Source of the DNA: Verrucomicrobiota bacterium
GTDB taxonomy: Bacteria > Verrucomicrobiota > Verrucomicrobiia > Chthoniobacterales > UBA10450
DNA length: 64,000 nucleotides
Direction of reading: 5' to 3'
NCBI GenBank assembly: GCA_003218475.1
Contig: QHNR01000106.1
Coordinates: 1,388 to 65,387, forward strand
The position numbers were made by a program, and so were the translations under genes. A model generated the notes under the pieces. The model worked only from the letters and a program-made list of their open reading frames with translations, did no database searches and had not been told where the DNA came from. The stretch's first letter is position 1. Every line of letters starts with the position of its first letter. Shown piece by piece: positions 3,531 through 25,328 of this stretch.

Positions 3531-4952
3531 ATGAGTATGCCGCCCGTGCTCACGGAGGCGACTTCATCTCCTGCCCGCAGTGCTACAGCGTTGCAGACGG
3601 GTCGAAGCCGCACCACAAAGAGCGAAAAAGAGAAAGTAATATCACCGTCGGAAGTCCTCGAAGAAATCGAGCAACATGTCTTGCTCGATGGTTTCAAGAT
3701 CGTCATCGATCTCGAAAAAAGTCGTGGCTCATATTTGTACAACGCCGTATCCGACAAGCGGCTCGTTGATTTCTACGGATTTTTCGGCTCGATGCCCATT
3801 GGGTTTAACCATCCGCACTTCGACAATCCCAACGTGCGCCGCGATCTTTTGCGTGCTGCGAAAGTCAAGATCGCGAACTCAGATATTTATTCCGCCGGTT
3901 ACGCGGAATTTATCAAGACGTTTGACCGCGTGGTCGGGTTTCCGCCGCTGGAACGTTATCTCTTTATCGAGGGCGGCGCGCTCGCGGTCGAGAATTGTTT
4001 AAAGGCGGCGATGGACTGGAAAATTCGCAAGAACATGGCTGCTGGCCACGGCGAGCGCGGCACACAGGTATTGCATTTTCGTCACGCGTTTCACGGGCGA
4101 AGCGGCTACACCATGAGCCTTACCAATACCGATCCGCGTAAGACGGATTTGTTCGCGAAATTCGATTGGCCTCGCGTCTCGTGTCCACACATCGATTTTT
4201 CATTGCCGGAATCGAAGCGCGAAGCCGATGTGATCGAGCGCGAACAGCAAGCCGAGCGCGAGATTCGCGAGTTCATCGAGCAGCGCCGGATCGATATTTG
4301 CGCGCTTATTATCGAGCCAATCCAAGGCGAGGGAGGCGATAACCATTTCCGGGGCGAGTGGCTGCAAACATTACGAAAAATCTGCGACCAAAACGATCTC
4401 CTCCTGATATTCGACGAAGTGCAATGTGGTATGGGTGTGACTGGTCGCAATTGGTGCTGCGAACATTTCGATGTTGTGCCCGATCTCCTCGCATTTGGGA
4501 AAAAGGCACAAGTCTGCGGGGTGATGGCGGGTCCGCGTATCGATGAAGTAAAAGACAACGCCTTTCGCTTACCTAGCCGTTTGAATTCCACCTGGGGTGG
4601 AAATTTCACCGACATGGTGCGCTCGACCAATTACCTGCGCATTATCGAGGAGGAACATCTTGTGGAGAACGCAGCGAAGGTAGGCGCATATTTTCTTGAC
4701 CGATTACGTGAGTTGCAACGGGCGGAGCCGCTAATTTCGGCCGCGCGTGGACGTGGATTATTTCTCGCCTTCGATTTGCCCGATGCGAAAACGCGCGAGC
4801 AGTTTTGGCACGGCTTCTTCGACCGCGGCGTCTTGACTCTTCGTTCGGGTGAGAACTCGATTCGTTTTCGTCCCGCGCTCGATATTACCGCTGACGTGAT
4901 TGATGAAGCGATGGAACTGATGCGCAAATTTTGCAGGCGCAGAAAAAGGTAG
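3531..4952 (+). CDS. lat: L-lysine 6-transaminase-like class III aminotransferase
   Basis: HVLLDGFKIVIDLEKSRGSYLYN...FFGSMPIGFNHPHF resembles actinobacterial lysine epsilon-aminotransferase. Class III blocks: LLIFDEVQCGMGVTG, AFGKK. Confidence 0.7.
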   Translation: MSMPPVLTEATSSPARSATALQTGRSRTTKSEKEKVISPSEVLEEIEQHVLLDGFKIVIDLEKSRGSYLYNAVSDKRLVDFYGFFGSMPIGFNHPHFDNPNVRRDLLRAAKVKIANSDIYSAGYAEFIKTFDRVVGFPPLERYLFIEGGALAVENCLKAAMDWKIRKNMAAGHGERGTQVLHFRHAFHGRSGYTMSLTNTDPRKTDLFAKFDWPRVSCPHIDFSLPESKREADVIEREQQAEREIREFIEQRRIDICALIIEPIQGEGGDNHFRGEWLQTLRKICDQNDLLLIFDEVQCGMGVTGRNWCCEHFDVVPDLLAFGKKAQVCGVMAGPRIDEVKDNAFRLPSRLNSTWGGNFTDMVRSTNYLRIIEEEHLVENAAKVGAYFLDRLRELQRAEPLISAARGRGLFLAFDLPDAKTREQFWHGFFDRGVLTLRSGENSIRFRPALDITADVIDEAMELMRKFCRRRKR

Positions 4953-8530: not shown

Positions 8531-10312
8531 ATGAAGTCTGGCAGTTTCTTCGGGGAGCTGAAAAGGCGTAACGTTTACAAAGTTGCCGTCGCTTATGCTG
8601 TCGTCGGGTGGCTCTTGATTCAGGTTGCTACGCAGGTTTTTCCGTTCCTGGATATTCCAAACTGGGCGATTCGCCTCGTCATTCTCGTGACTGCACTCGG
8701 TTTTCCTATTGCGCTGATTATCGCCTGGGCGTTCGAGCTCACACCTGAAGGAATTAGGCGAACCGAAGATGCCGATGCTGCGGGCCAACGTTCGCGCGGC
8801 GGAATTTGGATGGCGCTTGTTGTAACCGCGGCCGCGCTCTCGCTCGGTCTTTTTTTCCTCGGGCGCTACTCCGCTGGAAATGCGCGATCTCAGAACCCGG
8901 CTTCGCATGGCTCCGGCGCGGCAAGCAGCGAAGCGGTTACAGCTGTTCCTGAGAAGTCGGTCGCAGTTCTGCCATTGCTTAACGAAAGCGGTGACCCGAA
9001 GGACGAATATTTTTCGGATGGATTGTCGGAAGAACTGATCGCTGCTCTAGCACAAATCAACGGGCTGAAGGTCATTGGTCGCAGTTCTTCATTCCGTTTC
9101 AAAGACAGGCATGAGGACCCGAAAGCGATAGGCGAGAAGCTAGGCGTAAGCACGCTCCTCGAAGGCACGGTGCGCAAGCAGGACGATCGTGTACGCATCG
9201 TGGCTGAACTCGTGAACGCCGCAGACGGCATCGCGCTCTGGACGCGAACGTTCGATCGCGAATTAAGAGATATCTTCACAGTTCAGCAGGAAATCGCCAG
9301 GGCCGTCGCTGAGTCACTCAAGGTGACCTTGCTTGGTTCGAATGAAAAATCGGCCCAGATGGCGTCGAACAGCGTGGAAGCACACAACGCTTACCTTCAG
9401 GCCCATTTCCATTTCCAGCGCCGTAACGTCGAGGATTACCGCAAAGCCATCACTTATTTCGATCAGGCGATCCAGCTCGACCCGAATTATGCCTTGGCTT
9501 ACGCAGAACGTTCGGAGGTGTGGACCATGATTGGGGACCTCACCGGCCAACGCGCGACCGCGTACCCGAAAGCGCGCAGCGATGCTGAGAAGGCCGTCGA
9601 GATCGCGCCCGTCCTGGCCGAGGCGCACGCGGCCCTGGGCTGGGTCCGCTTTTTTGGCGAATGGAAATTTGCCGAAGGCCTGAGCGAGCTAAACCGTGCG
9701 AAAGAACTTTCTCCGGCAAATCCCACCGCCAACGATCTGCTGGCGCGAGTAATCGTTTACCTGGGGCGAATTGATGAGGCCGAGCGACAGGCGCGGCAAG
9801 CGGTGGAACTCGATCCGTTGTCTGTTGCGACACAATTCAACCTGGGGCGGGTGCTTTTCATTGCGGGAAAACTTGACGAGGCAGACGCGGCTGGACGCAA
9901 AGTGGCAGAGTTACAGCCGTCAGCGTCTTCCAGCCACCGATGGCAGGTGCTCGTCGCTGTGCAACGTGGCGACGGCGAGACCGCACTACGCGAAGCGCAA
10001 TTGGAGCCTGACGACGGGTTTCGTCCTTTCGAACTGGCGCTCGCACATTACGTACGTGGCGACCGCAAGGCGGCGGACGCGGCTTTGGCCGAGCTCGTGG
10101 CCAATAGCAGAAATGGCCTGGCCTATCAAATCGCCCAAGCGTACGCCGTACGAGGCGAGATAGAGAAAGCTTTCGAATGGTTGCAAATCTCGTTTGATAA
10201 TCACGACGGCGGGACGCTTAGCCTTGGCGTCGACCCATTATTGCGTGGCTTGCACGACGATCCTCGCTACAAGAACTTGCTCGCCAAACTCGGTTTACCT
10301 GGACCGTCATGA
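8531..10312 (+). CDS. paralog P1: 2-TM 'ELKRRNVYKV' anchor + TolB-N-like (COG5616-type) domain + TPR repeats
   Basis: FFGELKRRNVYKVAVAYAVVGWLLIQ...AWAFELTPEGIRRTED, then a TM segment, then KSVAVLPLLNESGDPKDEYFSDGLSEELI...LEGTVRK. TPR-like repeats follow, ending in the tail DPLLRGLHDDPRYKNLL. Confidence 0.8.
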   Translation: MKSGSFFGELKRRNVYKVAVAYAVVGWLLIQVATQVFPFLDIPNWAIRLVILVTALGFPIALIIAWAFELTPEGIRRTEDADAAGQRSRGGIWMALVVTAAALSLGLFFLGRYSAGNARSQNPASHGSGAASSEAVTAVPEKSVAVLPLLNESGDPKDEYFSDGLSEELIAALAQINGLKVIGRSSSFRFKDRHEDPKAIGEKLGVSTLLEGTVRKQDDRVRIVAELVNAADGIALWTRTFDRELRDIFTVQQEIARAVAESLKVTLLGSNEKSAQMASNSVEAHNAYLQAHFHFQRRNVEDYRKAITYFDQAIQLDPNYALAYAERSEVWTMIGDLTGQRATAYPKARSDAEKAVEIAPVLAEAHAALGWVRFFGEWKFAEGLSELNRAKELSPANPTANDLLARVIVYLGRIDEAERQARQAVELDPLSVATQFNLGRVLFIAGKLDEADAAGRKVAELQPSASSSHRWQVLVAVQRGDGETALREAQLEPDDGFRPFELALAHYVRGDRKAADAALAELVANSRNGLAYQIAQAYAVRGEIEKAFEWLQISFDNHDGGTLSLGVDPLLRGLHDDPRYKNLLAKLGLPGPS

Positions 10313-10365
10313 ACGAAAGGCCTTGCTTTTTCGCGGAGCTCGGGGAAATGGGGAGCTTCTACTAG
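10309..10365 (+). pseudogene. orphan N-terminal stub of an anchor-type paralog
   Basis: The ATG overlaps the P1 stop (ATGA). It encodes MNERPCFFAEL..., matching the conserved FFxEL start of the anchor module, then diverges and stops after 18 codons. Confidence 0.35.
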
Positions 10366-10633
10366 CGGTAACGGTGGCGCATTGGTTTTCCGAACTAATA
10401 CTGAAGCACCAGCGCTATGTGCCTTGGAGGTAAGCAAGGCTCTTAAGAGCTATCCCAACTTACACGTTCTGAAACAAGGGATCGATCCGCACCGTGCCGC
10501 TAAACCAATCCGCTGGTCCTTTGCCGGATGGTTCTGAACCAACTCTTGATTTCCATTCTCAACTCCATTGTTAACTGACTCCTGTTTGTCATGACGACTA
10601 CTTCTTAAATTGCTTTCAGGAAACATTTGTTCA

Positions 10634-12870: not shown

Positions 12871-14709
12871 GTGAATCTAAGCAATTTCCTAGCCGAACTG
12901 AAGCGGCGCAATGTCGTCCGCATGGCTGGGCTTTATCTCGTCGGCGCATGGCTGCTCACTCAGGTCGCGAGCACCGTCCTGCCGATGTTTGGCGCTCCGG
13001 ATTGGTTGCCCCGCAGCATCGTCAGCCTGCTGGCAATTGGTTTCGTTCCGACGCTGATCTTTAGTTGGGTCTTCGAACTGACCCCGCAAGGCTTGAAGCG
13101 CGATGAGGACGTAAGGCCGGAGGAATCAATCGCGCCACAAACTGCGCGGCGCATGAATCGCATGATCATCGCCGTGCTGCTGCTCGCACTCGGATATTTT
13201 GTGTTCGACAAATTTGTCCTGACGCCACGGCGCGAAGCGGCGCTCCTTGCGGCTCGGACATCGACGGAACCCAAATCTGTACCCAGCGCCAAGTCCGTCG
13301 CCGTGCTGGCCTTCGCCAATCTCAGCGACGACAAGGGCAGCGAATATTTTTCAGACGGAATCAGTGAGGAGTTGCTGACTGTGCTGCAAAAAATTCCCGG
13401 CTTGCACGTCGCCGCGCGGACCTCAGCGTTTTCCTTCAAAGGCAAGAATGCGACGGCGCAGGAGATCGGGCAGAAACTCGGCGTGGCGCGTCTGGTCGAG
13501 GGAAGTGTGCGCAAGGCCGGCGACGTTGTGCGTATCGCGGCCCGGCTCACTCGCACGGACACGGGCGAGCAACTTTGGTCAGAAAATTTTACGCGCGATT
13601 TGAAGGACGTGTTCGCCGTCGAAACCGAACTCGCCCAGACCATCGTCGGGCAGTTGAGCGGTCAGCTCACGGGTGGCGCCGCGGATCCGGCTGCGAAGGC
13701 GGAAATTCAAGCGCAGGTGCAGGCGGCGGAAAAGGGCGGGACGAAAAATGTGGAGGCCCACGAGCATTATCTGCAGGGCCGGTTTTATAGTGATCGCCAT
13801 TCGGAAAAAAGCGCTGCTGAGGCCCTCGCTGCTTATCAACAGGCAGTGGAGCTGGACCCCGCCTTCGCGCTCGCATGGGCGGGCCTTGCCCTAACGCACG
13901 TTTGGTACTGCGAGTTTTCCACCGAGGCGGGACGAACCGGTTTCGATACCCATCTGGCAGGAGCGCGAGAAGCAACGGCAAGGGCTTTGTCCCTCGAGCC
14001 TAACCTGCCGGAAGCGTTGCTCGCCCGCTCGGAGATTGAGCTCAATTTCGATTTTGACTGGAAAGGTGCGGCCGAAACATTACGAAAGGCGCTGAGTCTG
14101 GCCCCCGCAGATCCGGCGCTCCGAATCGCCGCGGGCAACCTTGAAACAGCTCGCGGGGATATGACTCGGGCCATCGACCTCTATCGCCAGGCCGTCGCGT
14201 TGGATCCCGTTAACCCGCGAGCCCGTTCGTTCCTGGCGTTCAACCTGGCGGTGGCCGGTCGGTTTTCCGAAGCGCGGGCGGAATTTCCGAGGGTTGTGGA
14301 GTTGAATCCGGCGGCGCCTTGGGCCCATGCCGGTCTCGGTCTCGCCTTCCTCATCGAAGGAAAGTTCGAGGAGGCGGCGGTCGCTGCGCGAGACGATGCG
14401 GGCGAGTGGGCCCGGCTTCTCATAGTGGCATGCGCCTATTGGGGCGAGAAACGAATCCCGGAATCAGATGCGGCGCTTGCTCAGTTAACCGCGACCTTCG
14501 CCGATACGGCAGCTTACCAGGTCGCCGAGGTCTATGCGTATCGCGGGGACAAGGATCAGGACTTCGAGTGGCTCGAGCGCGCGCGCCGGCAGCGCGACGG
14601 GGGTCTGGCCGGTATGCGGAGGGATCCGCTCCTCGCGAACCTAAAAACGGACCCGCGCTGGAATGCATTCTTGCAAACGATCGGCCTGGCCGACGACCAA
14701 TTGAAATGA
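12871..14709 (+). CDS. paralog P2: 2-TM anchor + TolB-N-like + TPR
   Basis: GTG start. FLAELKRRNVVRMAGLYLVGAWLLTQ...SWVFELTPQGLKRDED, KSVAVLAFANLSDDKGSEYFSDGISEELL, TPR region, tail DPLLANLKTDPRWNAFL. Confidence 0.8.
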   Translation: MNLSNFLAELKRRNVVRMAGLYLVGAWLLTQVASTVLPMFGAPDWLPRSIVSLLAIGFVPTLIFSWVFELTPQGLKRDEDVRPEESIAPQTARRMNRMIIAVLLLALGYFVFDKFVLTPRREAALLAARTSTEPKSVPSAKSVAVLAFANLSDDKGSEYFSDGISEELLTVLQKIPGLHVAARTSAFSFKGKNATAQEIGQKLGVARLVEGSVRKAGDVVRIAARLTRTDTGEQLWSENFTRDLKDVFAVETELAQTIVGQLSGQLTGGAADPAAKAEIQAQVQAAEKGGTKNVEAHEHYLQGRFYSDRHSEKSAAEALAAYQQAVELDPAFALAWAGLALTHVWYCEFSTEAGRTGFDTHLAGAREATARALSLEPNLPEALLARSEIELNFDFDWKGAAETLRKALSLAPADPALRIAAGNLETARGDMTRAIDLYRQAVALDPVNPRARSFLAFNLAVAGRFSEARAEFPRVVELNPAAPWAHAGLGLAFLIEGKFEEAAVAARDDAGEWARLLIVACAYWGEKRIPESDAALAQLTATFADTAAYQVAEVYAYRGDKDQDFEWLERARRQRDGGLAGMRRDPLLANLKTDPRWNAFLQTIGLADDQLK

Positions 14710-14892
14710 GCGCCCGCTAAATGCCTAACGAGTCGCGCTTCGGCGATAAGATAATTCTGCACTCTGAGCGATGAACTCTCGCCATTTCGGTTCCGAATTG
14801 CGTCGGCACAATGCTGACAAAGTCACCTTCGCGAATGTAGTCGACTAATTCAGTTCGTTAAGTCTCTGGTTTCCGGATACAAATACTTGCCA

Positions 14893-15620
14893 ATGCTGGC
14901 CCCCGAGTCTGCCTCCGACGTAAAATTCGAGATTGGTCATGTCTTGTTCATCGACATCGTGGGTTACTCCAAGCTGCTCATTCACGAGCAGAGCGAGCAG
15001 ATGCAGACGTTGCGAGAAATCGTGCGCGGCACGGAGCAGTTCCGCCTGGCTGAAGCCGAAGGCAAACTGCTGCGCTTACCGACCGGCGATGGTGGCGCGC
15101 TTGTGTTTCGCACTAGCCCCGAAGCGCCGGTCCGCTGCGCGCTGGAAATCAGTAAGGAGCTCAAGAAGCATCCCGAGCTTCGGGTGCGAATGGGAATTCA
15201 CAGCGGTGCGGTCAATGAAATCAGCGATCTGAACGAACAAGCCAACATTGCCGGCGCTGGCATCAACATCGCGCAGCGGGTTATGGATTGTGGCGATGCC
15301 GGTCACATCCTGCTATCACGGCATGTCGGGGAAGATTTGGAGCAATATCCGCGGTGGCGCTCGCTTCTGCGCGATCTTGGTGAGTGCGAAGTGAAGCACG
15401 GCGTCCGCATCTCGTCCTTCAATATTTCGCCATCACAGCAGCGTGGGCGGGCGAGAAGAAGCTTGCCTTGCAACAACTGGAAGCTGGGCTGCGTGCTCCC
15501 GCCGCATCATGGGCGCTGAGCTACGGTGCCTTAAAACTGCACCCCTTCTGGGACCCGCTCCGCGGCGATCCGCGCTTCAAAAAAATCGTAGAGTCCCTCG
15601 CGCCGAAAGAGAGACACTAA
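14893..15620 (+). pseudogene. paralog P3: class III cyclase head joined out of frame to the family C-terminal tail (internal deletion of TM/TolB-N/TPR)
   Basis: Cyclase blocks LFIDIVGYS, LPTGDGGALVF, RMGIHSGAV, GINIAQRVMD run up to VKHGVRISSFNI (about 15420). From about 15425 a different frame reads ..ITAAWAGEKKLALQQLEAGL..YGALKLHPFWDPLRGDPRFKKIVESLAPK. This aligns with the last ~55 aa of P6. Confidence 0.65.
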
Positions 15621-17099: not shown

Positions 17100-19431
17100 G
17101 CTAGAGAGGGTTGCTCTCAGCCAGTAAAGTCCCGCTTCACGGCTGACGAGCACAAGGCGAAGCGCCTGGAGATCGCGCACGTGCTCTTCATGGACATCGT
17201 CGGCTACTCCATGCTGCTGACCGACGAACAATCGGAAGCGCTTCAGGAGTTGAACCAGATCGTGCGCAGTACCGAAGCGGCGCGCGAGGCCGAGGCTGCA
17301 GGAGAGCTTACTGTTTTGCCGACGGGCGATGGCATGGCGCTGGTTTTCGCCGGTTCAGTGGAACAGCCGGTCGAATGCGCCTTGGAGATTAGCCAAGCTT
17401 TGCGCGCGCAGCCGAGTCTGCCGGTGAGAATGGGAATCCACAGCGGCCCGATCCATCATGTGAAGGATGCAAACGGACGCGAAAACATTGCCGGCGTAGG
17501 CATCAACATCGCGCAGCGAGTGATGGATTGCGGCGACGCCGGCCACATTCTCGTGAGTAAACGCGTCGCCGACGATCTCGCGCAACACCGTCGATGGCAG
17601 CCGTACATCCATGAACTGGGCGACGTGGAAGTGAAACACGGAGTTGTTGTCTCGTTAGTTAATCTTTACGCCGAAACAATTGGCCAATCCCACGCCGCCG
17701 ACGCGGCTCGGAAAAGCCAGCGGCACCATCCGCAGTTCCAGAGTTAGGACACGCAAAGCACTCTCTCCGCTTGCCCGAGCGATCTTCATCGTCGCGGCGT
17801 TACTCCTCGCGCTTGCCATCGTGTCAGTAATTTTTGCGCCTGCGATCCTGCGGTCGCTCGGAAAAAGCCAGGTAACATCATCACCCCAGGTTCCAGCCAT
17901 TCCATCACCCCCGTCTCTCGCCGATACCATTAAGAGCGCAGTCGCCAAGCAGATCACCGATGAGTTGCAGGGCGAACTTTCTCGTAAGAAAAACGCCGCG
18001 GTCCAGCCACCTCCTACCGGTTCGGCGATCCCAGAGAAAAGCGTCGCTGTTCTGCCGTTCGACAATCTTAGCCGCGACCCGGACAACGCTTACTTTTGCG
18101 AAGGCGTGCAGGACGAGATTCTCACTCGTCTGGCAAAGGTATCAGACTTGAAAGTCGTTTCGCGTACATCGACGCAGCATTTCAAAAGCTCTCCAGATAA
18201 TCTGCCACAGATCGCGAAGCAGTTGGGTGTGATGCACGTCCTCGAAGGCAGTGTGCAGAAGTCTAACGATCAGGTGCGCGTGAATGTGCAACTGATCAAC
18301 GCGCTGACCGACGCGCATCTTTGGGCCGACACATACGATCGAAAGCTTACCGACATATTCGCGGTCGAAAGCGAGATCGCGAAAACGATTGCTGACACGC
18401 TACAGGCGAAGGTGACGGGCTCGGAGAAACAAATGATGGCGGCGCAGCCGACGAGCAACACGGAGGCGTACGAGCTTTATCACAAAGGAAAATCGCTGTG
18501 GGAGAAGCGTTCCGGTGATAATATTCCAAAAGCGATCGCCTATTACGAGCAGGCGATTGCGCGCGACCCGAATTATGCGCTGGCTTACACAGGTCTGGCC
18601 AAAGCCTATATCCTGCTCCCTTTTTACACGGGTGCGGACCGGCTCGATGCAGGCTCGAAGGCCAAAGACGCGGCACTCAAAGCTCTCCGTCTTGATCCCA
18701 ATCTGGCCGAAGCGCACGCCGCGCTCGGCAAGGTACTCTTTTTTCGCGAGATCGATTTGGCCGGCGCCATGCGCGAATACAAACGCGCGATCGAACTCAA
18801 TCCGAACGACGCGACGGCACATCATTGGTTCGGCAACGACAGCCTGGCAGCCCTCGGACGATTTGAGGAGGCCATTGCCGAAGGCAAGCGCGCGATTGAG
18901 TTAGATCCGCTGTCCACAGTTATTAACGTGGACCTGGGTGAAACCTTCTATTACGCCCACCGCTACGACGAGGCTGAGAGGCAAATGCGAAAAACCCTCG
19001 AGATTGATCCAACATCCTTCTACGCGCACTATAATCTCGGCATCGTTCTTCAATTAAAAGGCGACTTGTCTGGCGCGATTGCCGAATACAAAAAGGCAAA
19101 GCAATTAGGCGACAATCCACTTGTGTCGACGCTCTGCGCTCAGGCTAAAGCTCAGGCTGGCGACAAGGATGCCGCGCTGCGAATGCTGAGCGATCTCGAT
19201 AAGATAAGTCAGCACCGCGAAGTGGTTGGCTACTTGCGCGCTCTGCTTTATCTCAGCCTGAACAATAAAGATGAAGCACTGCGCTGGCTCGAACAGGGTT
19301 TCGCGGAACGCGATGGCTCCAATATCTGCTGGATCAAAGTCGATCCATTGCTCGATTCATTACACGGCGATCCGCGCTTCGAAGCGCTGGTCCAAAGAGT
19401 GGTCGCGCCGAAATCAGAAGCGAAGCAGTGA
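17100..19431 (+). pseudogene. paralog P4: class III cyclase head + TM + TolB-N-like + TPR, split by a frameshift and lacking an upstream ATG
   Basis: ORFs 17181..17747 and 17680..19431 overlap in different frames. Removing one base near 17682-17686 gives ..VNLYAETIG-NPTPPTRLGK.., a continuous protein. The homologous N-terminal region (..EHKAKRLEIAHVLFMDIVGYS) is open from 17100 with no ATG, and the first canonical start is the GTG at 17181. Confidence 0.7.
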
Positions 19432-19490: not shown

Positions 19491-19822
19491 GATATCGCCG
19501 CGCGCGCGATTATGAATCGTGCGGCGTCTCACGCCGCGCCGAAAGAGCTCGGCAGCGCCTGCGCCCATGCCACCGCCGCCATAAGAAGCTTGGTCAAAGT
19601 TATTCGTCCGCAAAAGATCTGAGCCAAGGCGATAAAGATGATTTACATCCGCACGCAAATTCGAGATCGAAATGAACCCTCAATTCGTTAGCTGCTTCGA
19701 CCCATCAGATGTTCATCGCCGCCCGCAGTTCGTTGCCTCCGCCGCGGTAGCAAAACAAAGAGCCGCCACGCGGCCCAGCGTGACGGCTGATTGCAAAATG
19801 CGGTTTGTCTCTTTCGGCAGTC

Positions 19823-21154
19823 CTAGTGATTATCCACGACCGTTTGCGCTGCAGGCTTGCTCAGTTCGAGCTGGGTACTCACCTTTTGCAAACCGGCGGT
19901 AAGCGCTTGAATTTGCTTTTGCTGCTCCGCGAGTCTCGACTGAAAGTCCTGCTTTAACTGCGCGATGGTCGCTTTCTGTTCCTCTAATGTCCGGTGTTCT
20001 TTCAGGAACTCGTTGAGCAACATCGCGTTCACCGCGTCGTAGCGCACGGTGTAAACCTTCCCTTCTGCATCTCGGACCACCAGGTCGGGGTTTACCTTCG
20101 CTACGTCCTCGGCTACGAGGCCAAACTGCGGGACACCCTCGGGGTCAAACTCTTTCTTGTAATGGAATGTGACCGGCTTGAGCGCCAGGATTGCTTCGCT
20201 TGCCTTGTCCATGGGCTTAATCTCATCCTTGAAGCGTGCCGATGAGGGTGTCGTCCCGAGTTGGCCATTGGCATTTATGAAAACTGGCGTTCCCATCGGA
20301 GCGGTCTTTCCCATAATCCCAGCGATATACGTGGCTGTCTGGGTTCCTATCGTGCCAATGCGGATGGTGTTGGCCTCGCCAGCAACACCAACGTTCCCGA
20401 CATCGATGTTGTTGTCACCAGTGGTGAGATTTGCACCGGCGAAATTGCCCAAGGCGATGTTGCCGATACCAGTTGTGTTATTCAAGAGCGCATCATAGCC
20501 GCTGGCCGTGTTGCTGTTGCCGGTTGTGTTGGAGAAGAGCGCAAAATAACCAATTGCCGTATTGTTCGGCCCGGTAGTGTTGGAGAAAAGCGCGAAACTA
20601 CCGGTAGCCGTGTTCCGGATGGCGGTGGTGTTGGAAAAGAGCGCGTCATGACCATCGGCCGTGTTGTTGTTCCCGGTTGTGTTGAAAGTCAGTGCAGCAC
20701 GACCAGTAGCCGTGTTGCGTTCGCCGGTCGTGTTGCTATTGAGCGCAGCAAAACCGTTGGCCGTGTTTCTAACGCCCGTTGTATTGGTGCTAAGCGCTGT
20801 AGAACCGGTGGCAGTGTTAGAGTCGCCCGTTGTGTTGCTGAAGAGCGCATCAAAACCTATGGCCGTGTTCTCGGTGCCCGTTGTGAGGCTGAAGAGGGCA
20901 TCAGTGCCCTCCGCGGTGTTGTCGCCGGCGTAGCCTCCGTCCGGTGGTGGCGATAGCTGTGCTTGCGCCGTCGGCGAAAGCACCAAAGCAGCGAGCACGA
21001 GTGGAATGAGAACTAAACCGTATCGCAAAGGCGACCGGCTGATCGAACTTGTTATCAGTGGAGTTTTCGCTTTGATGAAGCGCCTGTTCCGTTCCCCCCG
21101 ATTAGCTTGGCTCGACGGCGGGAACATCATTGGTTTAATAGGATTCTTTTTCAT
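19823..21154 (-). CDS. secreted tail-fibre-like protein: signal peptide, ten 17-aa repeats, C-terminal peptidase S74 (intramolecular chaperone) domain, coiled coil
   Basis: AAGGAG lies 7 nt before the ATG. Signal peptide LVLIPLVLAALVLSPTAQAQ. Repeats of the form NTAxGxxALxSNTTGxx. SSARFKDEIKPMDKASEAILALKPVTFHYKKE...FGLVAEDVAKVNPDLVV...VRYDAVNAMLLNEF matches the S74 autoproteolytic chaperone domain as I recall it. Confidence 0.8.
   Translation of the reverse strand: MKKNPIKPMMFPPSSQANRGERNRRFIKAKTPLITSSISRSPLRYGLVLIPLVLAALVLSPTAQAQLSPPPDGGYAGDNTAEGTDALFSLTTGTENTAIGFDALFSNTTGDSNTATGSTALSTNTTGVRNTANGFAALNSNTTGERNTATGRAALTFNTTGNNNTADGHDALFSNTTAIRNTATGSFALFSNTTGPNNTAIGYFALFSNTTGNSNTASGYDALLNNTTGIGNIALGNFAGANLTTGDNNIDVGNVGVAGEANTIRIGTIGTQTATYIAGIMGKTAPMGTPVFINANGQLGTTPSSARFKDEIKPMDKASEAILALKPVTFHYKKEFDPEGVPQFGLVAEDVAKVNPDLVVRDAEGKVYTVRYDAVNAMLLNEFLKEHRTLEEQKATIAQLKQDFQSRLAEQQKQIQALTAGLQKVSTQLELSKPAAQTVVDNH
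20411..20920 (-). repeat. coding tandem repeat, 51-nt (17-aa) period x 10
   Basis: Residues 79-248 of the tail-fibre-like protein: NTAEGTDALFSLTTGTE / NTAIGFDALFSNTTGDS / NTATGSTALSTNTTGVR ... Confidence 0.85.
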
Positions 21155-21296
21155 TTTCTTCTCCTTTACATGTGAGTTATTTTGTTTTGTCCGCGCGGGA
21201 GGCCTGAGGCGACTCGCGCGTGGTCAGTTTTGCTCTGCCCGTTATGAAAGTCTTTAAGTCGTGGCTGAATTTTTCTGAATTGTTGTGAAAACGACG

Positions 21297-23270
21297 ATGC
21301 AAGCTACGCCTGCTCACCTCTACGAATTTGGCGATTTCCGGCTCGACACGGCGAAACGGGTCTTGCGGCGGCTGGATGGGACGATGGTGCCCCTCACCCC
21401 AAGAGTGTTCGAAACGCTCCTTTATATGGTGGAGCATCACGATACCGTCCTCGATAAGGAACGGCTGATGGAGGCGGTCTGGCCTGATTCGATCGTCGAG
21501 GAGAACAATCTGAGTCAGAACATCTCGACGCTGCGGCGTATTTTTGGCGAAACGCCGGGCTCACACGGCTATATCGTGACGGTTCCGGGTCGCGGCTATC
21601 GCTTCGTTGCGCAAGTTAGAGAGCAAACCGACAATGGCAGTGCCACAGTCGAGGCAGAGGAAGCAACAGGACCAACATCGCCAGAGAATGGAGCGGAAGC
21701 GGCTACAGGAAAGGATCGACAGCAGTCGCCCGGAAAGACTGGCGGGCTCTTGGCGCTCGCCGTTCTCGGTGTAATTGCGCTCACGGCCGCGTTCCTTGCG
21801 CGAGGCCCGAGCGTTCGCTGGCCTGAGAAACATAAGATCGCAAAGGCACCTCCGGCACCGTCGTCCGGCACGGTGACCGATATCGTGCGCTCGATCGCAG
21901 TCTTGCCGTTCGAAAACCTAAGCGGCAACCCCGAAAACGCATACTTTACTGATGGAATCCAGGAAGAGATCCTGATGCGTCTAGCGAAGATTGCCGATCT
22001 AAAAGTGGTCTCGCGGACGTCGACAGTGCGCTATAAGAGGTCGCCGGAGAATCTGCGCGAGATCGCGACGCAGCTCGGCGTTGCAAACGTCCTGGAAGGC
22101 AGCGTCCAACGCACCGCTGACCGGGTGCACGTAAACGTGCAGTTAATTAAAGCGGCAAGTGACACGCATCTCTGGGCGGAAGCGTACGACCGAAAGCTGA
22201 CCGACATTTTTGCCGTTGAGAGTGAAATTGCGAAAACGATCGCCGATAGCCTGCAGGCGAAGCTGACTGGCTCCGAGCGAAACGCAATCGCGGCGCAACC
22301 GACAGAGAACACGGAAGCGTATCAACTTTATTTACGGGGTCGGTATCTTTGGAACAGGCGCACGGGCGAAAATCTTAAAAAAGCGCTCGCCTATTTCGAG
22401 CAAGCAGCTGAGAAGGATCCCCACTACGCCCTCGCCTACGCAGGCATGGCCGATAGTTGCGTTTTGATTCCCATCTACGCCGCAGGAACTCCTCAAGACT
22501 ATCTTCCTCGCGCGCGAGTTGCCGCGCAAAAGGCAGTCGAGCTCGACGATACGCTGGCCGAAGCGCACACCTCCCTCGCCTACGTGTTCTTTTATGATTT
22601 CGAGTATGCCCAATCGGTAAAAGAATTCGAACGCGCGATTTCCCTAAATCCGAATTACGCGATGGCCCACCTGTGGTATGGCTTAGGCCCGCTTTCGGCG
22701 ATGGGAGAGTTCGACAGAGCTATCGCCGAGGAAAAACGAGCCCTCGAGCTCGACCCAGTCTCGCCGATCATCAATGCTGATCTCGGGACCGTTTACACGC
22801 TCGCGCGACGATACGACGAAGCGATTGCTCAATTGCGCGACACGGTGGAAATGAATCCGCAATTTCATGGGGGCCACCGGTGTCTTGGATGGGCACTGGA
22901 ATTGAAAGGCGCGACCGGTGAAGCGATTGCCGAATATCACAAAGCATTCGAGCTAAGTGACGATCCGATAATGCTCGCGATGCTGGCTCACGCCGAGGCG
23001 AGCATTGGGAAGCAAAATCAAGCCCGGCAAATACTGGGCCAGCTCACCGAAGAGGCCAAGGCCCGCTACGTGCCAGCATACGCTTTTGCCGTGATTTACC
23101 TGGCGCTTGGCGAAAAGGATCATGCGTTAGATTGGCTGGAACAAGCGGCTCGCGATCACGACGGTTTCTATATCAACCTCATCAAGTTCGAACCATTTCT
23201 CGATCCCCTGCGTGGTGATCCTCGTTTCGAAACGCTTGTTTCCAGAATCTTGTCCGGGCCTGTAAAGTAA
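21297..23270 (+). CDS. paralog P5: ToxR/CadC-type winged-helix DNA-binding head + TM + TolB-N-like + TPR
   Basis: YEFGDFRLDTAKRVLRRLDGTMVPLTPRVFETLLYMVEHHDTVLDKERLMEAVWP...GYIVTVPGRGYRF (OmpR/PhoB-type trans_reg_C). TM segment LLALAVLGVIALTAAFLA. RSIAVLPFENLSGNPENAYFTDGIQEEIL. Tail DPLRGDPRFETLV. An alternative GTG start lies at 21285. Confidence 0.8.
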   Translation: MQATPAHLYEFGDFRLDTAKRVLRRLDGTMVPLTPRVFETLLYMVEHHDTVLDKERLMEAVWPDSIVEENNLSQNISTLRRIFGETPGSHGYIVTVPGRGYRFVAQVREQTDNGSATVEAEEATGPTSPENGAEAATGKDRQQSPGKTGGLLALAVLGVIALTAAFLARGPSVRWPEKHKIAKAPPAPSSGTVTDIVRSIAVLPFENLSGNPENAYFTDGIQEEILMRLAKIADLKVVSRTSTVRYKRSPENLREIATQLGVANVLEGSVQRTADRVHVNVQLIKAASDTHLWAEAYDRKLTDIFAVESEIAKTIADSLQAKLTGSERNAIAAQPTENTEAYQLYLRGRYLWNRRTGENLKKALAYFEQAAEKDPHYALAYAGMADSCVLIPIYAAGTPQDYLPRARVAAQKAVELDDTLAEAHTSLAYVFFYDFEYAQSVKEFERAISLNPNYAMAHLWYGLGPLSAMGEFDRAIAEEKRALELDPVSPIINADLGTVYTLARRYDEAIAQLRDTVEMNPQFHGGHRCLGWALELKGATGEAIAEYHKAFELSDDPIMLAMLAHAEASIGKQNQARQILGQLTEEAKARYVPAYAFAVIYLALGEKDHALDWLEQAARDHDGFYINLIKFEPFLDPLRGDPRFETLVSRILSGPVK

Positions 23271-23294: not shown

Positions 23295-25328
23295 ATGAAT
23301 CCGAAGGAATTCTTCGGCGAGGCAAAGCGACGCAACGTTTACAAAGTCGCCGTTGCTTATGCCGTCGCCGGTTGGGCGCTCGCCCAAGGCATCGCACAGG
23401 TTTTTCCGGTGTTCGGAGTTCCAAACTGGATCATTCAACTGATTGTCTTGTTGATCGTCATTGGTTTTCCGATTGCGCTTGTTCTGGCGTGGGTGTTTGA
23501 GCTGACGTCCGAAGGACTAAAACGAACCGAGGATGCCGATCTTGCGCGGCCCCGGGCAAAATCTCAAGCTTGGGTTTATGTCGCGGTTATCGGCGCTGTT
23601 TTGTCGATCGGATTATTTTTTGTCGGCCGATATACCGCCGTAAAGGCAAACGCGTCGGAAAATAGTTTCGTAAAATCAATTGCCGTGCTGCCGTTTGAGA
23701 ACATAAGCGACGACAAACAAAATAGTTACTTCGCCGACGGCGTGCAGGACCAAATCCTTACCAACCTGGCCAAGGTCTCCGAGCTGAAAGTCATCAGCCA
23801 CACAAGTGCACGCCAATACAAGAGCGGTGTGCAACGGAACCTGCGCGAGATCGGTAAACAACTCGGCGTTGCGTATATCGTTGAAGGTTCTGTCCAGCGC
23901 TCGCGGGACCGGCTCCGGATTAATGCGCAATTGATCGATGCTCGAACCGATACACACGTCTGGGCGGAGACCTATGATCGCACCGCGGCGGATTTGTTCG
24001 CAATTCAGAGCGAGCTTGCGCAATCGATTGTCGCACAGCTCAAGGCAAAACTTTCGCCCCAACAAAAAGCCGAGATTGAAGAACGTCCAACCCAGGATTT
24101 GGTCGCGTTTGAGCTTTATCTTCAAGCGAAGACAATCATCGACAGTTATATCAACGCGACCGATGTGCGGGCCGCGCTGCTCCAGGCATTGAAGTCGCTC
24201 GACGAGGCAATCAAGCGCGATCCGAACTTCGTCTCCGCGTACTGTTATGTCGCGCTCGCGAACGACCTTCTTTACTTTTTCGATCTCGATGCAACTCCAG
24301 AGCGGATCACGCTGGCTGAAAATGCGGTGAACAATGCGTTGCGGCTCCGTCCCGATTCAGCGGAAGCCCGTTTCGCGCGGGCCGATTATCTCTTCCGATG
24401 CCTCCGCGACTACGATCGCGCGCTCGAAGAACTTGCCATTGCGCGACCCGGCTTGCCGAACAGCACGCCGTTTTTCATTCTCTCCGGTTACATCAATCGC
24501 CGTCGCAATCATTTTCCCGAAGCCGAACGCGATTTCTCCACGGCGTTTGCGCTCGATCCGCGGAACCCCAATGCTTACAATCTTCTCGCCGACACTTACG
24601 TGCTTGAACGCCGGTTGCAGGAAGCGGTCCACGTCTATGACAATGTCCTCGCTGCCGGCGAAACTGTTCCGATCGTCTACTTCCGGCGCGCTTCGAGCAT
24701 CCAATCCGGAACCGGCGACATCCGCCCACTTCGCGATATTCTGGCAAAATTTCCGGACATGGAATTTGCCGGCGGTCAAACACCGGTCCGGGTTTGGATC
24801 TCGATGCTCGACCATGACTATACGCGAGCGGAAAAATTCCTGGCCGATTCGCCGCGAAAAGATTTTCAAGACATCGATTTCAGCTTTTATTTCCCGAAAT
24901 CGTGGTACGAAGCGATGATAACGCGCGAGAAAGGCGACGCCGCCAAAGCGACGTCTGCTTTTCGCGAATGCCGCGAAATTCTCGCGCAACGATTGGTCGT
25001 TAAGCCGGAGCACGCGCGAACAATCGCCGTACTCGCGCAGGTTGATGCCAATCTTGGCCAAAAAGATTTGGCGATTAGCGAGGCGCAACATGCCATCGAT
25101 CTGATGCCGACATCGAAAGATATTTACGACGGCGCTCTGGTGTTAGAAGGCCTTGCTCAGGTTTACACTTGGAGCGGTGAACACGACCGCGCCATCGAAG
25201 TGCTTCAAAAACTTGTGTCGATGCCAGGCTACACCAACTACGGCCGTTTGAAGCTTTATCCGTTGTGGGCTCCGCTGCGCGGCAATCCTAAGTTTGAAAA
25301 CATCGTAACGTCCCTTGGTCCGAAATAA
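23295..25328 (+). CDS. paralog P6: 2-TM anchor + TolB-N-like + TPR
   Basis: FFGEAKRRNVYKVAVAYAVAGWALAQ..AWVFELTSEGLKRTED, KSIAVLPFENISDDKQNSYFADGVQDQIL, tail YPLWAPLRGNPKFENIV. Confidence 0.8.
   Translation: MNPKEFFGEAKRRNVYKVAVAYAVAGWALAQGIAQVFPVFGVPNWIIQLIVLLIVIGFPIALVLAWVFELTSEGLKRTEDADLARPRAKSQAWVYVAVIGAVLSIGLFFVGRYTAVKANASENSFVKSIAVLPFENISDDKQNSYFADGVQDQILTNLAKVSELKVISHTSARQYKSGVQRNLREIGKQLGVAYIVEGSVQRSRDRLRINAQLIDARTDTHVWAETYDRTAADLFAIQSELAQSIVAQLKAKLSPQQKAEIEERPTQDLVAFELYLQAKTIIDSYINATDVRAALLQALKSLDEAIKRDPNFVSAYCYVALANDLLYFFDLDATPERITLAENAVNNALRLRPDSAEARFARADYLFRCLRDYDRALEELAIARPGLPNSTPFFILSGYINRRRNHFPEAERDFSTAFALDPRNPNAYNLLADTYVLERRLQEAVHVYDNVLAAGETVPIVYFRRASSIQSGTGDIRPLRDILAKFPDMEFAGGQTPVRVWISMLDHDYTRAEKFLADSPRKDFQDIDFSFYFPKSWYEAMITREKGDAAKATSAFRECREILAQRLVVKPEHARTIAVLAQVDANLGQKDLAISEAQHAIDLMPTSKDIYDGALVLEGLAQVYTWSGEHDRAIEVLQKLVSMPGYTNYGRLKLYPLWAPLRGNPKFENIVTSLGPK

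Follow-up and report, generated by a model that had tools for sequence, protein, structure and literature searches.

We analysed a 64-kb window (64,000 nucleotides of contig QHNR01000106.1 from a Verrucomicrobiota bacterium, numbered here from its first letter) that contains a gene for a 443-residue fibre protein and, divergent from it, the gene for a membrane-bound winged helix-turn-helix (wHTH) regulator, P5. Our best explanation, which we regard as moderately probable taken as a whole, is that the protein is a cellular fibre of phage type, exported by Sec, self-cleaving and controlled by P5, and that the two genes form a cassette whose ends have been swapped. It builds on the identity of the fibre's chaperone domain and its catalytic dyad, the conservation of the gene pair, the exclusive placement of a set of sequence boxes in the shared spacer, the exchange of the regulator's sensor and purifying selection on the fibre gene, all of which can be read from the sequences compared. 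The fibre gene and its parts are laid out as follows.

19823-21154, reverse strand: fibre gene, 443 residues (open reading frame call, Pfam S74, PHROG virion and tail-fibre families over residues 80-410).
20960-21154, reverse strand: residues 1-65, basic n-region (1-44), hydrophobic core (45-60) and a signal-peptidase-like site, AQA/Q.
20921-20959, reverse strand: residues 66-78, QLSPPPDGGYAGD, the conserved mature N-terminus (xPPPDGGY).
20411-20920, reverse strand: residues 79-248, ten 17-residue repeats NTAxGxxALxSNTTGxx by register and consensus, the presumed fibre shaft.
20246-20410, reverse strand: residues 249-303, a degenerate 11th repeat and the neck or tip, delimited by alignment of homologues and nonsynonymous divergence (dN).
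20039-20245, reverse strand: residues 304-372, the Peptidase_S74 chaperone/autoprotease core (Pfam) with an invariant dyad.
19823-20038, reverse strand: residues 373-443, a helical, coiled-coil-like chaperone tail (AlphaFold2 helix; indels between homologues).
19761-19788, reverse strand: intrinsic-terminator-like hairpin, 11-bp stem and T-rich tail, 35 nucleotides (nt) past the fibre stop codon.

An earlier note on this DNA had named an S74 domain in the protein, and a profile search returned it as a clear match (PF13884; E=3e-12, 47.1 bits against a cutoff of 22) over residues 304-359 and profile positions 1-57 of 58. Ser304 and Lys309 were invariant in 40 homologues, within SSARFK (Ser-x4-Lys), and the catalytic pair of endoNF, Ser911/Lys916, shows the same spacing. 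The scissile bond is predicted to lie before Ser304, with Lys309 as the catalytic partner. The family profile also reached the long-tail-fibre chaperone of phage S16 (6F45; E=0.0015), whose SSDRRIK aligns with SSARFK; a search of the PDB with the single fibre sequence gave no match. Beyond the S74 core, the protein matched PHROG 23837 over residues 80-368 (E=4.6e-37) and PHROG 1980 (tail fiber) over residues 106-410, and 219 phage records were matched by tblastn, the best of them at 34-37% identity over residues 73-430; these include Methylophilales phage Venkman, Pelagibacter phage HTVC112P and SPO1-like proteins described as having an ‘intramolecular chaperone auto-processing domain’. A fold search of the model in BFVD, which covers predicted viral structures, returned S74 and intramolecular-chaperone proteins as the top matches. 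On these alignments the protein can firmly be called a homologue of phage tail fibres and virion proteins over the repeats and the S74 domain. Membership of this family would make it a trimeric beta-helix, the model at hand being that of a monomer. Foldseek matches of the model to the PDB were not used (generic left-handed beta-helices, and 3GW6 at noise level), and a Pfam match to NGO1945_C was disregarded at 17.8 bits, below its cutoff of 27.

The pairing of the fibre gene with P5 was then compared across related loci (numbered L below). A protein search found a divergent wHTH and tetratricopeptide repeat (TPR) neighbour beside the fibre gene in L004, L005-L009, L012, L013, L014 and L043, a set that includes four GTDB species representatives as well as metagenome contigs. 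When metagenome contigs were scanned for a 29-nt pattern from the spacer, 38 further loci came up, with a fibre gene on one side in all 38 and a wHTH gene on the other in all 37 that extended far enough. Overall, the divergent pair was present in at least 45 independent Udaeobacter/Chthoniobacterales contigs and, by clustering of the flanking open reading frames, in at least 12 different neighbourhoods with both outer flanks changing, which indicates that it is inherited as a unit while its surroundings change. Counted by source, five GTDB species representatives and about 40 metagenome contigs keep the pair. The co-occurrence in related genomes for which the earlier note had proposed a check was thus found. 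In a reverse search from the wHTH, homologues of about 80% identity on long contigs faced a fibre gene in L129 and L130, where the fibre is broken by frameshifts (nanopore-style assemblies). The metagenome contig L101 (REG- FIB+ REG-) has a further wHTH regulator gene, which is convergent with that of the fibre.

The pairing is specific to this clade, and other arrangements occur around related fibres. A sigma factor of the extracytoplasmic function (ECF) type (PF07638) together with a Ser/Thr kinase-TPR gene takes the same divergent position in L001-3, L011, L024 and L026. One fibre, P0041, is 81% identical to that of the window, closer than some wHTH-paired orthologues, yet is divergent from such an ECF sigma and Ser/Thr kinase-TPR gene, and its N-terminus and spacer differ from those of the window. 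To judge by P0041, fibre bodies shift between regulatory contexts. No universal regulator link was found across the S74 fibre family: upstream of fibres at 49-62% identity lay unrelated genes (methylase, Kelch, dockerin, cation efflux, GDSL lipase), and fibres in other phyla stood in tandem arrays without regulators. As for the ECF-paired spacers themselves, L001 (5613-6001) and L011 (4964-5086) have in common ...GTAATCTGAAGTCGATTAWCCGTCTAAT..., a possible ECF -35/-10 with CGTC, and the L001 spacer holds an insertion of about 270 nt. In L024 a promoter-like element of about 70 nt (AAAAATTTCAATTTAGATGATCA...TGAAAGG) occurs twice, upstream of the gene for a small secreted protein and upstream of the fibre gene, suggesting a small ECF regulon.

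The region between the two genes of the window holds the following elements.

21155-21296, no strand assigned: divergent control region, 142 bp between the fibre and P5 start codons.
21190-21225, reverse strand: GC-rich inverted repeat with a 5-bp conserved stem, in the presumed 5' untranslated region (UTR) of the fibre gene.
21242-21256, reverse strand: near-invariant core, TAAAGACTTTCATAA(T/C/G) in the fibre sense, containing CATAA(T/C/G).
21265-21289, reverse strand: three TTCAG boxes in 10-bp phase, the candidate operator for the P5 wHTH; TTCAC-N5-TTCAG-N5-TTCAG in the window.

The limits of this spacer were fixed from both sides. The GTG at 21285, which the open reading frame finder had chosen as the P5 start, was rejected as it lacks conservation among orthologues, whereas the start at 21297 (ATG here) is ATG or GTG in all of them; the spacer therefore runs over the 142 bp from 21155 to 21296 that the earlier note had given. 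The fibre ATG at 21154 follows an AAGGAG Shine-Dalgarno sequence (21161-21166, 6 nt upstream). This ATG is kept in all seven protein-found orthologous loci, window included, each time behind a Shine-Dalgarno-like motif rich in purines (AAGGAG or a variant with GGA). At the other end, the terminator-like hairpin 35 nt after the stop codon makes it likely that the fibre gene is monocistronic.

Across orthologues, the spacer was 74-89% identical to that of the window, compared to 61-84% for the fibre coding DNA, and in most comparisons it was at least as conserved. The boxes, with the fibre-sense consensus TTTCAGAAnAATTCAGrAArATTCAGCC, end 7 nt from the P5 ATG; the triple box had a chance expectation of 0.17 in the window, and Tandem Repeats Finder called its 10-bp period. 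Box 2 was identical in 34 of 34 distinct spacer sequences; box 1, covered by 33 of them, was identical in 29. Both lay outside the pattern with which the metagenome spacers had been found. With one mismatch allowed, the triple box was present 50 times across related loci totalling 1.27 Mb, one per locus and all in the spacer beside this wHTH, and beside none of the ECF-paired or unpaired fibre genes in the same 1.27 Mb. The core TAAAGACTTTCATAA was near-invariant in the protein-found loci L004-L043 and in L129, while in L090-L127 its invariance is a consequence of the pattern used to find these loci. Box 3, with CATAA(T/C/G) following 17 nt downstream, is at the expected -35 position of a fibre promoter; CATAA(T/C/G) is a possible -10 of that promoter and the complement TATGAA a possible -10 of P5, both assigned by eye. 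In L106 and L115, the boxes and the CATAA core are retained although the inverted repeat and the long 5' UTR are missing, which places the fibre promoter upstream of that repeat. We do not claim this inverted repeat as a functional RNA (RNAalifold gave 5 pairs with only 1 double-sided change, there was no Rfam match, and the element is missing in L106/L115). Direct repeats one helical turn apart are the binding sites of winged helices of the OmpR/PhoB/ToxR family, and a box over the -35 position would resemble the pho-box layout of activator-dependent promoters. With 7 nt between the boxes and the P5 start codon, bound P5 would also cover its own leader.

The regulator itself is composed as follows.

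21297-23270, forward strand: P5 regulator gene, 657 residues, divergent from the fibre gene (Pfam Trans_reg_C and TPR).
21297-21626, forward strand: wHTH, residues 1-110 (Pfam Trans_reg_C over residues 33-107).
21759-21815, forward strand: single transmembrane (TM) helix, about residues 155-173, by hydropathy.
21894-23270, forward strand: periplasmic TolB_N/FlgO-like and TPR sensor, from about residue 200 (Pfam TPR).

P5 gave partial NCBIfam matches to CadC and HilA/EilA, and the closest solved structures to its DNA-binding domain were those of CadC (5JU7, E. coli, E=2e-11) and ToxR (2.8e-7); no receiver domain was matched in Pfam or NCBIfam. With CadC and ToxR nearest, and with a wHTH, one TM helix and a periplasmic domain in place, ‘ToxR-like’, as the earlier note had called this membrane-bound regulator, is a fair label. 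Its parts are conserved to very different degrees. Among orthologues, the wHTH (residues 1-110) was 87-94% identical to that of the window and the linker/TM part 46-78%, and from about residue 200 the sensors fell into two types: type B, 93-100% identical to that of the window, in six loci (the window, L004, L093, L104, L105 and L120), and type A, only 29-36% identical (about 50% at the nucleotide level), in 23 loci. In L097 the spacer, TTCAC variant included, and the first 136 fibre residues are identical to those of the window, yet the sensor is of type A. The sensor of the window is also 55% identical to that of a neighbouring paralogue (17680-19431) in the local cyclase-linked TolB_N/TPR array. 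Given the conserved wHTH and a sensor akin to this neighbouring family, P5 is here best read as a chimera of the wHTH-TM part of the fibre regulator and a sensor of that family.

A similar pattern was seen on the fibre side. Synonymous divergence (dS) was lowest around the spacer (0.2-0.56 in the wHTH, 0.18-1.1 at the fibre 5' end) and rose outward on both sides, to a maximum of 0.7-2.7 in the tip/S74 region. As part of our best explanation, the evolutionary unit would be the wHTH-TM part, the operator and the 5' half of the fibre gene; recombination with paralogues would replace the sensor at one end of this unit and the tip, chaperone and tail of the fibre at the other. A broader form of this idea is a plug-and-play cassette with a fixed core (wHTH-TM, TTCAG operator and fibre shaft), interchangeable sensors, tips and chaperones, and the ECF-sigma/kinase pair as a parallel front end; we put it forward only as a tentative possibility. 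If true, strains would show different recognition fibres depending on the envelope signals that they meet, and the cassette could let the bacteria attach to certain cells, polymers or necromass. The large family of secreted S74 fibres, with about 68,000 clusters at 50% identity, would then be a set of tools for cellular recognition in general and not phage debris.

Taken together, we infer the following sequence of events. The fibre chain would be exported by Sec, after which the S74 intramolecular chaperone would fold three chains and set their register, then cut itself off before Ser304 by means of Ser304/Lys309 and so release residues 304-443 including the helix. The mature fibre would have about 238 residues per chain (66-303), with PPPDGGY at its proximal end, a beta shaft of ten repeats and a variable distal tip. 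The winged helix of P5, of CadC/ToxR type, would bind the three TTCAG boxes and activate fibre transcription; their overlap with the fibre -35 position is consistent with class-II-type activation, and their location between any P5 promoter and the P5 start suggests that P5 may also regulate itself. The periplasmic TolB_N-like/TPR domain would set the timing through a periplasmic cue, the sensor of the window having probably come from the neighbouring cyclase-linked family. We consider the regulatory coupling of P5 and fibre to be strongly suggested by the comparative data and a role as a surface fibre in adhesion to be plausible.

Several observations weigh against this explanation. On the regulatory side, scanning for the sigma-70 consensus gave no promoter call in the spacer, the putative fibre -10 is variable in its last base (T/C/G), and the boxes, 7 nt from the P5 start and tied to the wHTH, could serve the P5 leader or autoregulation instead of fibre activation. 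In L128, moreover, a wHTH of 82% identity and a triple box face not a fibre gene but one for a small secreted Lys/Pro-rich protein of 182 residues (4311-4859, reverse strand), which points either to a replaced cargo or to a second member of the regulon. On the side of the protein, the Asp of the canonical S74 catalytic motif SDxxxK (PMC10769870) is replaced by Ser or Ala in these fibres. Outside the repeats, the AlphaFold2 model of the monomer is of poor quality (mean predicted local distance difference test score, pLDDT, of 58), with values of 27-35 in the S74 region, which is unsurprising if this domain, like those S74 domains whose structures are solved, needs an intertwined trimer to fold. 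A Foldseek search of the PDB with this model had no match at E<=0.001 (best 1.6), no outer-membrane anchor or secretion/export partner was found, and the Udaeobacter papers that we found do not mention the fibre or P5 genes.

An alternative explanation is that the fibre is as described but that P5 is not its regulator, the boxes serving the P5 leader or autoregulation and the pair persisting through a compact bidirectional promoter that recombination seldom splits. The position of the boxes 7 nt from the P5 ATG fits this, as does their presence beside the wHTH in L128, where the divergent gene does not encode a fibre, and fibre genes of 79-81% identity work with another regulator set, the ECF sigma and kinase. 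However, the pair has survived at least 12 flank rearrangements and the replacement of the regulator's sensor half, box 3 stands 17 nt upstream of the near-invariant CATAA(T/C/G) on the fibre strand, and the replacement gene in L128 is likewise divergent and secreted, which fits a wHTH that drives the divergent gene. A divergent target combined with autoregulation is a usual layout of one-component activators. We regard this alternative as unlikely, and of the suggestion in the earlier note that the fibre gene is a candidate target of P5, the co-inheritance and the conserved triple box stand, with regulation itself an inference and the pairing confined to the clade.

A second question is where the fibre would be located. 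The Sec signal peptide claimed in the earlier note was recognisable on inspection of charge and hydropathy: residues 1-44 hold 11 K/R against 1 D/E, and GLVLIPLVLAALVLS, the most hydrophobic 15-mer in the first ~115 residues (Kyte-Doolittle mean 2.7), is followed by TAQA/QL, so that the N-terminus looks like a Sec-type signal. The basic region is conserved in wHTH-paired orthologues and is shorter and different in the ECF-paired paralogues and L106/L115. At position 28, most orthologues carry an internal Met (FMKTKTPL) that is missing in the window (FIKAKTPL), and L106, L115, L014 and the ECF-paired paralogues begin near this position; the conserved long basic extension may possibly reflect dual start sites, or it may be dispensable. 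Beyond the predicted cleavage site, Q66, P69, P71, D72, G73, G74 and Y75 are invariant in the alignment of homologues and xPPPDGGY recurs in the verrucomicrobial paralogues L014-L029, L042 and L081, which makes residues 66-78 a candidate for the proximal or attachment end of the fibre. In the fibres of L013, L020, L021, L031 and L032, a Cys-rich motif (e.g. CRDGCD, CQEGC, CNEGCD) stands in place of PPPDGGY, and Bacteroidota fibres share another conserved N-terminal domain (..AINTDGS.PD.SAMLDVKS..KGLLIPRMT..QR.AI..PATGL..). Fibre proximal ends appear to be phylum-specific, and different anchoring may be the cause.

The hydrophobic segment could also be an uncleaved signal anchor, giving a periplasmic fibre tethered to the inner membrane, for instance as an envelope spacer or as a partner of the TPR sensors. 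The unusually long n-region (44 residues, 11 K/R), the lack of an identified outer-membrane export route and a neighbourhood rich in periplasmic TPR sensor proteins are in line with such a location. We nevertheless consider it improbable, since a good AxA/Q cleavage motif is conserved, the n-region is short or missing in L014, L106, L115 and the ECF-paired paralogues with the remainder intact, and a variable tip with mosaicism is typical of outward-facing receptor-binding proteins (PMC10769870).

The body of the exported fibre that we favour agreed with the earlier note in its repeats and only partly in its C-terminus. The ten 17-residue units NTAxGxxALxSNTTGxx were reproduced exactly in count and consensus over residues 79-248, with N1, A3, G5, A8, T13 and T14 identical in 10 of 10 repeats; Tandem Repeats Finder reported a 51-nt period in 8.2 copies. 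In the AlphaFold2 monomer model the repeats are strand-rich and all-beta (pLDDT 80-93). Nine of the 10 repeats carry an NxS/T sequon, mostly N-T-T, and the mature part consists of 19% Thr, 14% Asn and 14% Gly. Residues 266-303 are the most variable, occurring in three alternative, cassette-like sequence versions in the homologue alignment, and no other conserved part of the gene has a dN as high as theirs (0.37-0.63). The C-terminal tail is mosaic, with swapped and indel-rich versions among homologues. The model has one long helix over residues 372-432, in keeping with the coiled coil that had been claimed for the terminus; however, this helix is C-terminal to the predicted cleavage site and, if S74 processing happens, it would depart with the chaperone and not be part of the mature fibre.

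These features might also describe a true member of a trimeric-autotransporter-type adhesin family, or of the mosaic adhesive trimer (MAT) type. The JGI annotation of one homologue does read ‘trimeric autotransporter adhesin’, and the NTAxG/NTTG repeats resemble YadA-head-like repeats. Yet Pfam gave no YadA anchor, Hep_Hag or other match to trimeric autotransporter adhesins in the fibre, and we reject that class because there is no YadA-like barrel anchor and the C-terminus is a helix. The S74 fibres of the MAT group do have the same layout of signal peptide, beta fibre and terminal S74 (PMC10769870); against membership, the repeats start 13 residues past the predicted cleavage site, which leaves no room for the ~130-residue MAT N-terminal domain, and the fibre has 443 residues compared to about 1,000 for MATs. 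Membership of either family thus seems very improbable to us.

That this is a cellular fibre and not phage debris is seen from its relatives and from its surroundings. Its closest relatives were found in Candidatus Udaeobacter and in Chthoniobacterales metagenome-assembled genomes, at 67-79% identity among GTDB representatives. More than 8,000 database proteins matched at E<1e-5, the top 120 all being 70-100% identical to the fibre, and an exhaustive search of 1.84 billion cluster representatives returned 68,541 clusters (50% identity) at E<=1e-3 and 11,900 at E<=1e-30. Members of the S74-fibre family range from about 340 to 6,570 residues. Almost every homologue examined has a signal peptide (Verrucomicrobiota, Gammaproteobacteria, Bryobacterales, Chthonomonadaceae, Bacteroidota), and the verrucomicrobial members have a common mature N-terminus, xPPPDGGYxxxNTAEG. 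Compared to its orthologues, the fibre showed a dN/dS of 0.12-0.27 overall and 0.03-0.06 in the S74 domain. The gene is cellular and under purifying selection. Pfam scans of 45 open reading frames across the 64-kb window found no capsid, terminase, tail, baseplate or integrase gene but fatty-acid and amino-acid metabolism, transporters, TPR sensors and similar functions, no tRNA gene was detected in the window, and the flanks of about 50 related loci held no phage genes and no genes of extracellular contractile injection systems (eCIS); the earlier note's picture of a fibre gene outside any phage context was borne out. A reading as a defence system was rejected, PADLOC models matching neither the fibre protein nor P5. 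S74 domains reportedly occur in eCIS tail fibres too, and the homology to phage tail fibres and virion proteins extends over the full length, but it is hardly probable that the fibre is a relic or satellite component of a machine of phage origin (prophage, tailocin or eCIS) whose other parts are encoded elsewhere and onto whose particle it assembles, mainly because such fibres assemble in the cytoplasm, with which the N-terminal signal peptides of this fibre and its relatives are incompatible, and also given the absence of phage and eCIS genes from window and flanks, the purifying selection and the dedicated regulator.

Beside the pair, the window holds an array of TolB_N-like and TPR periplasmic sensor paralogues that flank it on both sides (8531-10312, 12871-14709, 17680-19431 and 23295-25328), several of them fused, now or formerly, to adenylate/guanylate cyclase domains. 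A wHTH in P5 and Ser/Thr kinases in related loci are fused to this sensor module as well, giving three outputs from one sensor type. Within the region 17163-19431, a cyclase domain (17181-17747, frame 3) overlaps its sensor (17680-19431, frame 1) in a different frame. The L004 orthologue of this cyclase and sensor is a single 670-residue protein, and the version in the window is therefore probably a frameshifted pseudogene or an assembly error. We also noted a sensor-less cyclase fragment at 14887-15519 (region 14887-15620), 80% identical to the N-terminus of the L004 protein, and a 52-residue cyclase remnant at 10313-10468.

If the link between P5 and the fibre is wrong, the finding shrinks to another ‘tail fiber domain-containing protein’ annotation. 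If it is right, the dedicated regulator and short candidate operator would offer an experimental handle on the timing of fibre production, and the wHTH, operator and fibre core with swapped sensors and tips would be a clean natural case of modular rewiring in a ToxR-like pathway. With 443 residues, this minimal member should lend itself readily to expression and to trimer modelling. Its host group, Candidatus Udaeobacter, is dominant in soil and very little of its cell-surface biology is known. Experimental work on cellular S74 fibres was found in the literature only for the MAT fibres of Bdellovibrio. We found no paper on this family in Verrucomicrobia/Udaeobacter, nor on a ToxR-like regulator with an S74 fibre, although our coverage of the literature was partial and this is weak evidence.

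Among known systems, P5 is similar to the ToxR/CadC regulators in its N-terminal OmpR-family winged helix, single TM helix and periplasmic sensor. The ToxR operator, TNAAA-N5-TNAAA, consists of direct repeats one helical turn apart, like the candidate operator of P5. Unlike ToxR and CadC, the periplasmic part of P5 is TolB_N/FlgO-like with TPR, a module fused to cyclase and Ser/Thr kinase outputs in the same genomes, and one conserved wHTH is combined with either of two sensor types that are about 30% identical to each other. The ECF sigma (PF07638) and Ser/Thr kinase-TPR pairs, which we take to be ECF43-like, resemble P5 in lying divergent beside a fibre gene and in having a kinase with the same kind of TPR sensor, and differ from it in their sigma-factor output, a spacer without TTCAG boxes and a different fibre N-terminus. 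Myelin regulatory factor (MYRF) undergoes a trimerisation-dependent self-cleavage that frees a transcription factor from its membrane anchor; here, in contrast, the part released would be the chaperone itself and the product a fibre. MYRF is a further case of an S74/ICA domain in a cellular protein (PMC10769870).

Phage fibres and spikes with a C-terminal chaperone (K1F endosialidase 3GW6, T5 pb1 4UW8, S16 gp37 6F45) have the same S74 domain and catalytic Ser/Lys, whereas the present fibre has a Sec signal, its own regulator and terminator-like hairpin, no virion genes nearby and cellular conservation across species. The closest characterised cellular analogue is the S74 subgroup of the MAT fibres of Bdellovibrio bacteriovorus (e.g. 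Bd3182; Caulton et al. 2024, PMC10769870), which are cell-surface fibres with demonstrated self-cleavage and swappable tips. These fibres and the present one are alike in being chromosomal and non-phage, in having a signal peptide, a beta-rich fibre and a terminal S74 domain with Ser-x4-Lys, and in their variable distal tips and multi-paralogue families. All 21 MATs have a beta-rich N-terminal domain of about 130 residues after the signal peptide (PMC10769870), for which the spacing leaves no room here, with repeats from residue 79; no direct sequence comparison with this domain was made. Further differences are a length of 443 and not about 1,000 residues, a regular shaft of 17-residue repeats, SSxxxK in place of SDxxxK, a host that is a non-predatory soil Verrucomicrobium, unlike Bdellovibrio, and a dedicated ToxR-like regulator with a candidate operator, of which none is described for MATs in the passages of PMC10769870 that were searched. 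By analogy, the present fibre would work like an S74-subgroup MAT fibre, although by the N-domain it is not one of them. Seen against these systems, the locus offers a minimal secreted S74 fibre with a ToxR/CadC-like regulator and candidate operator and with modular exchange of sensor and tip.

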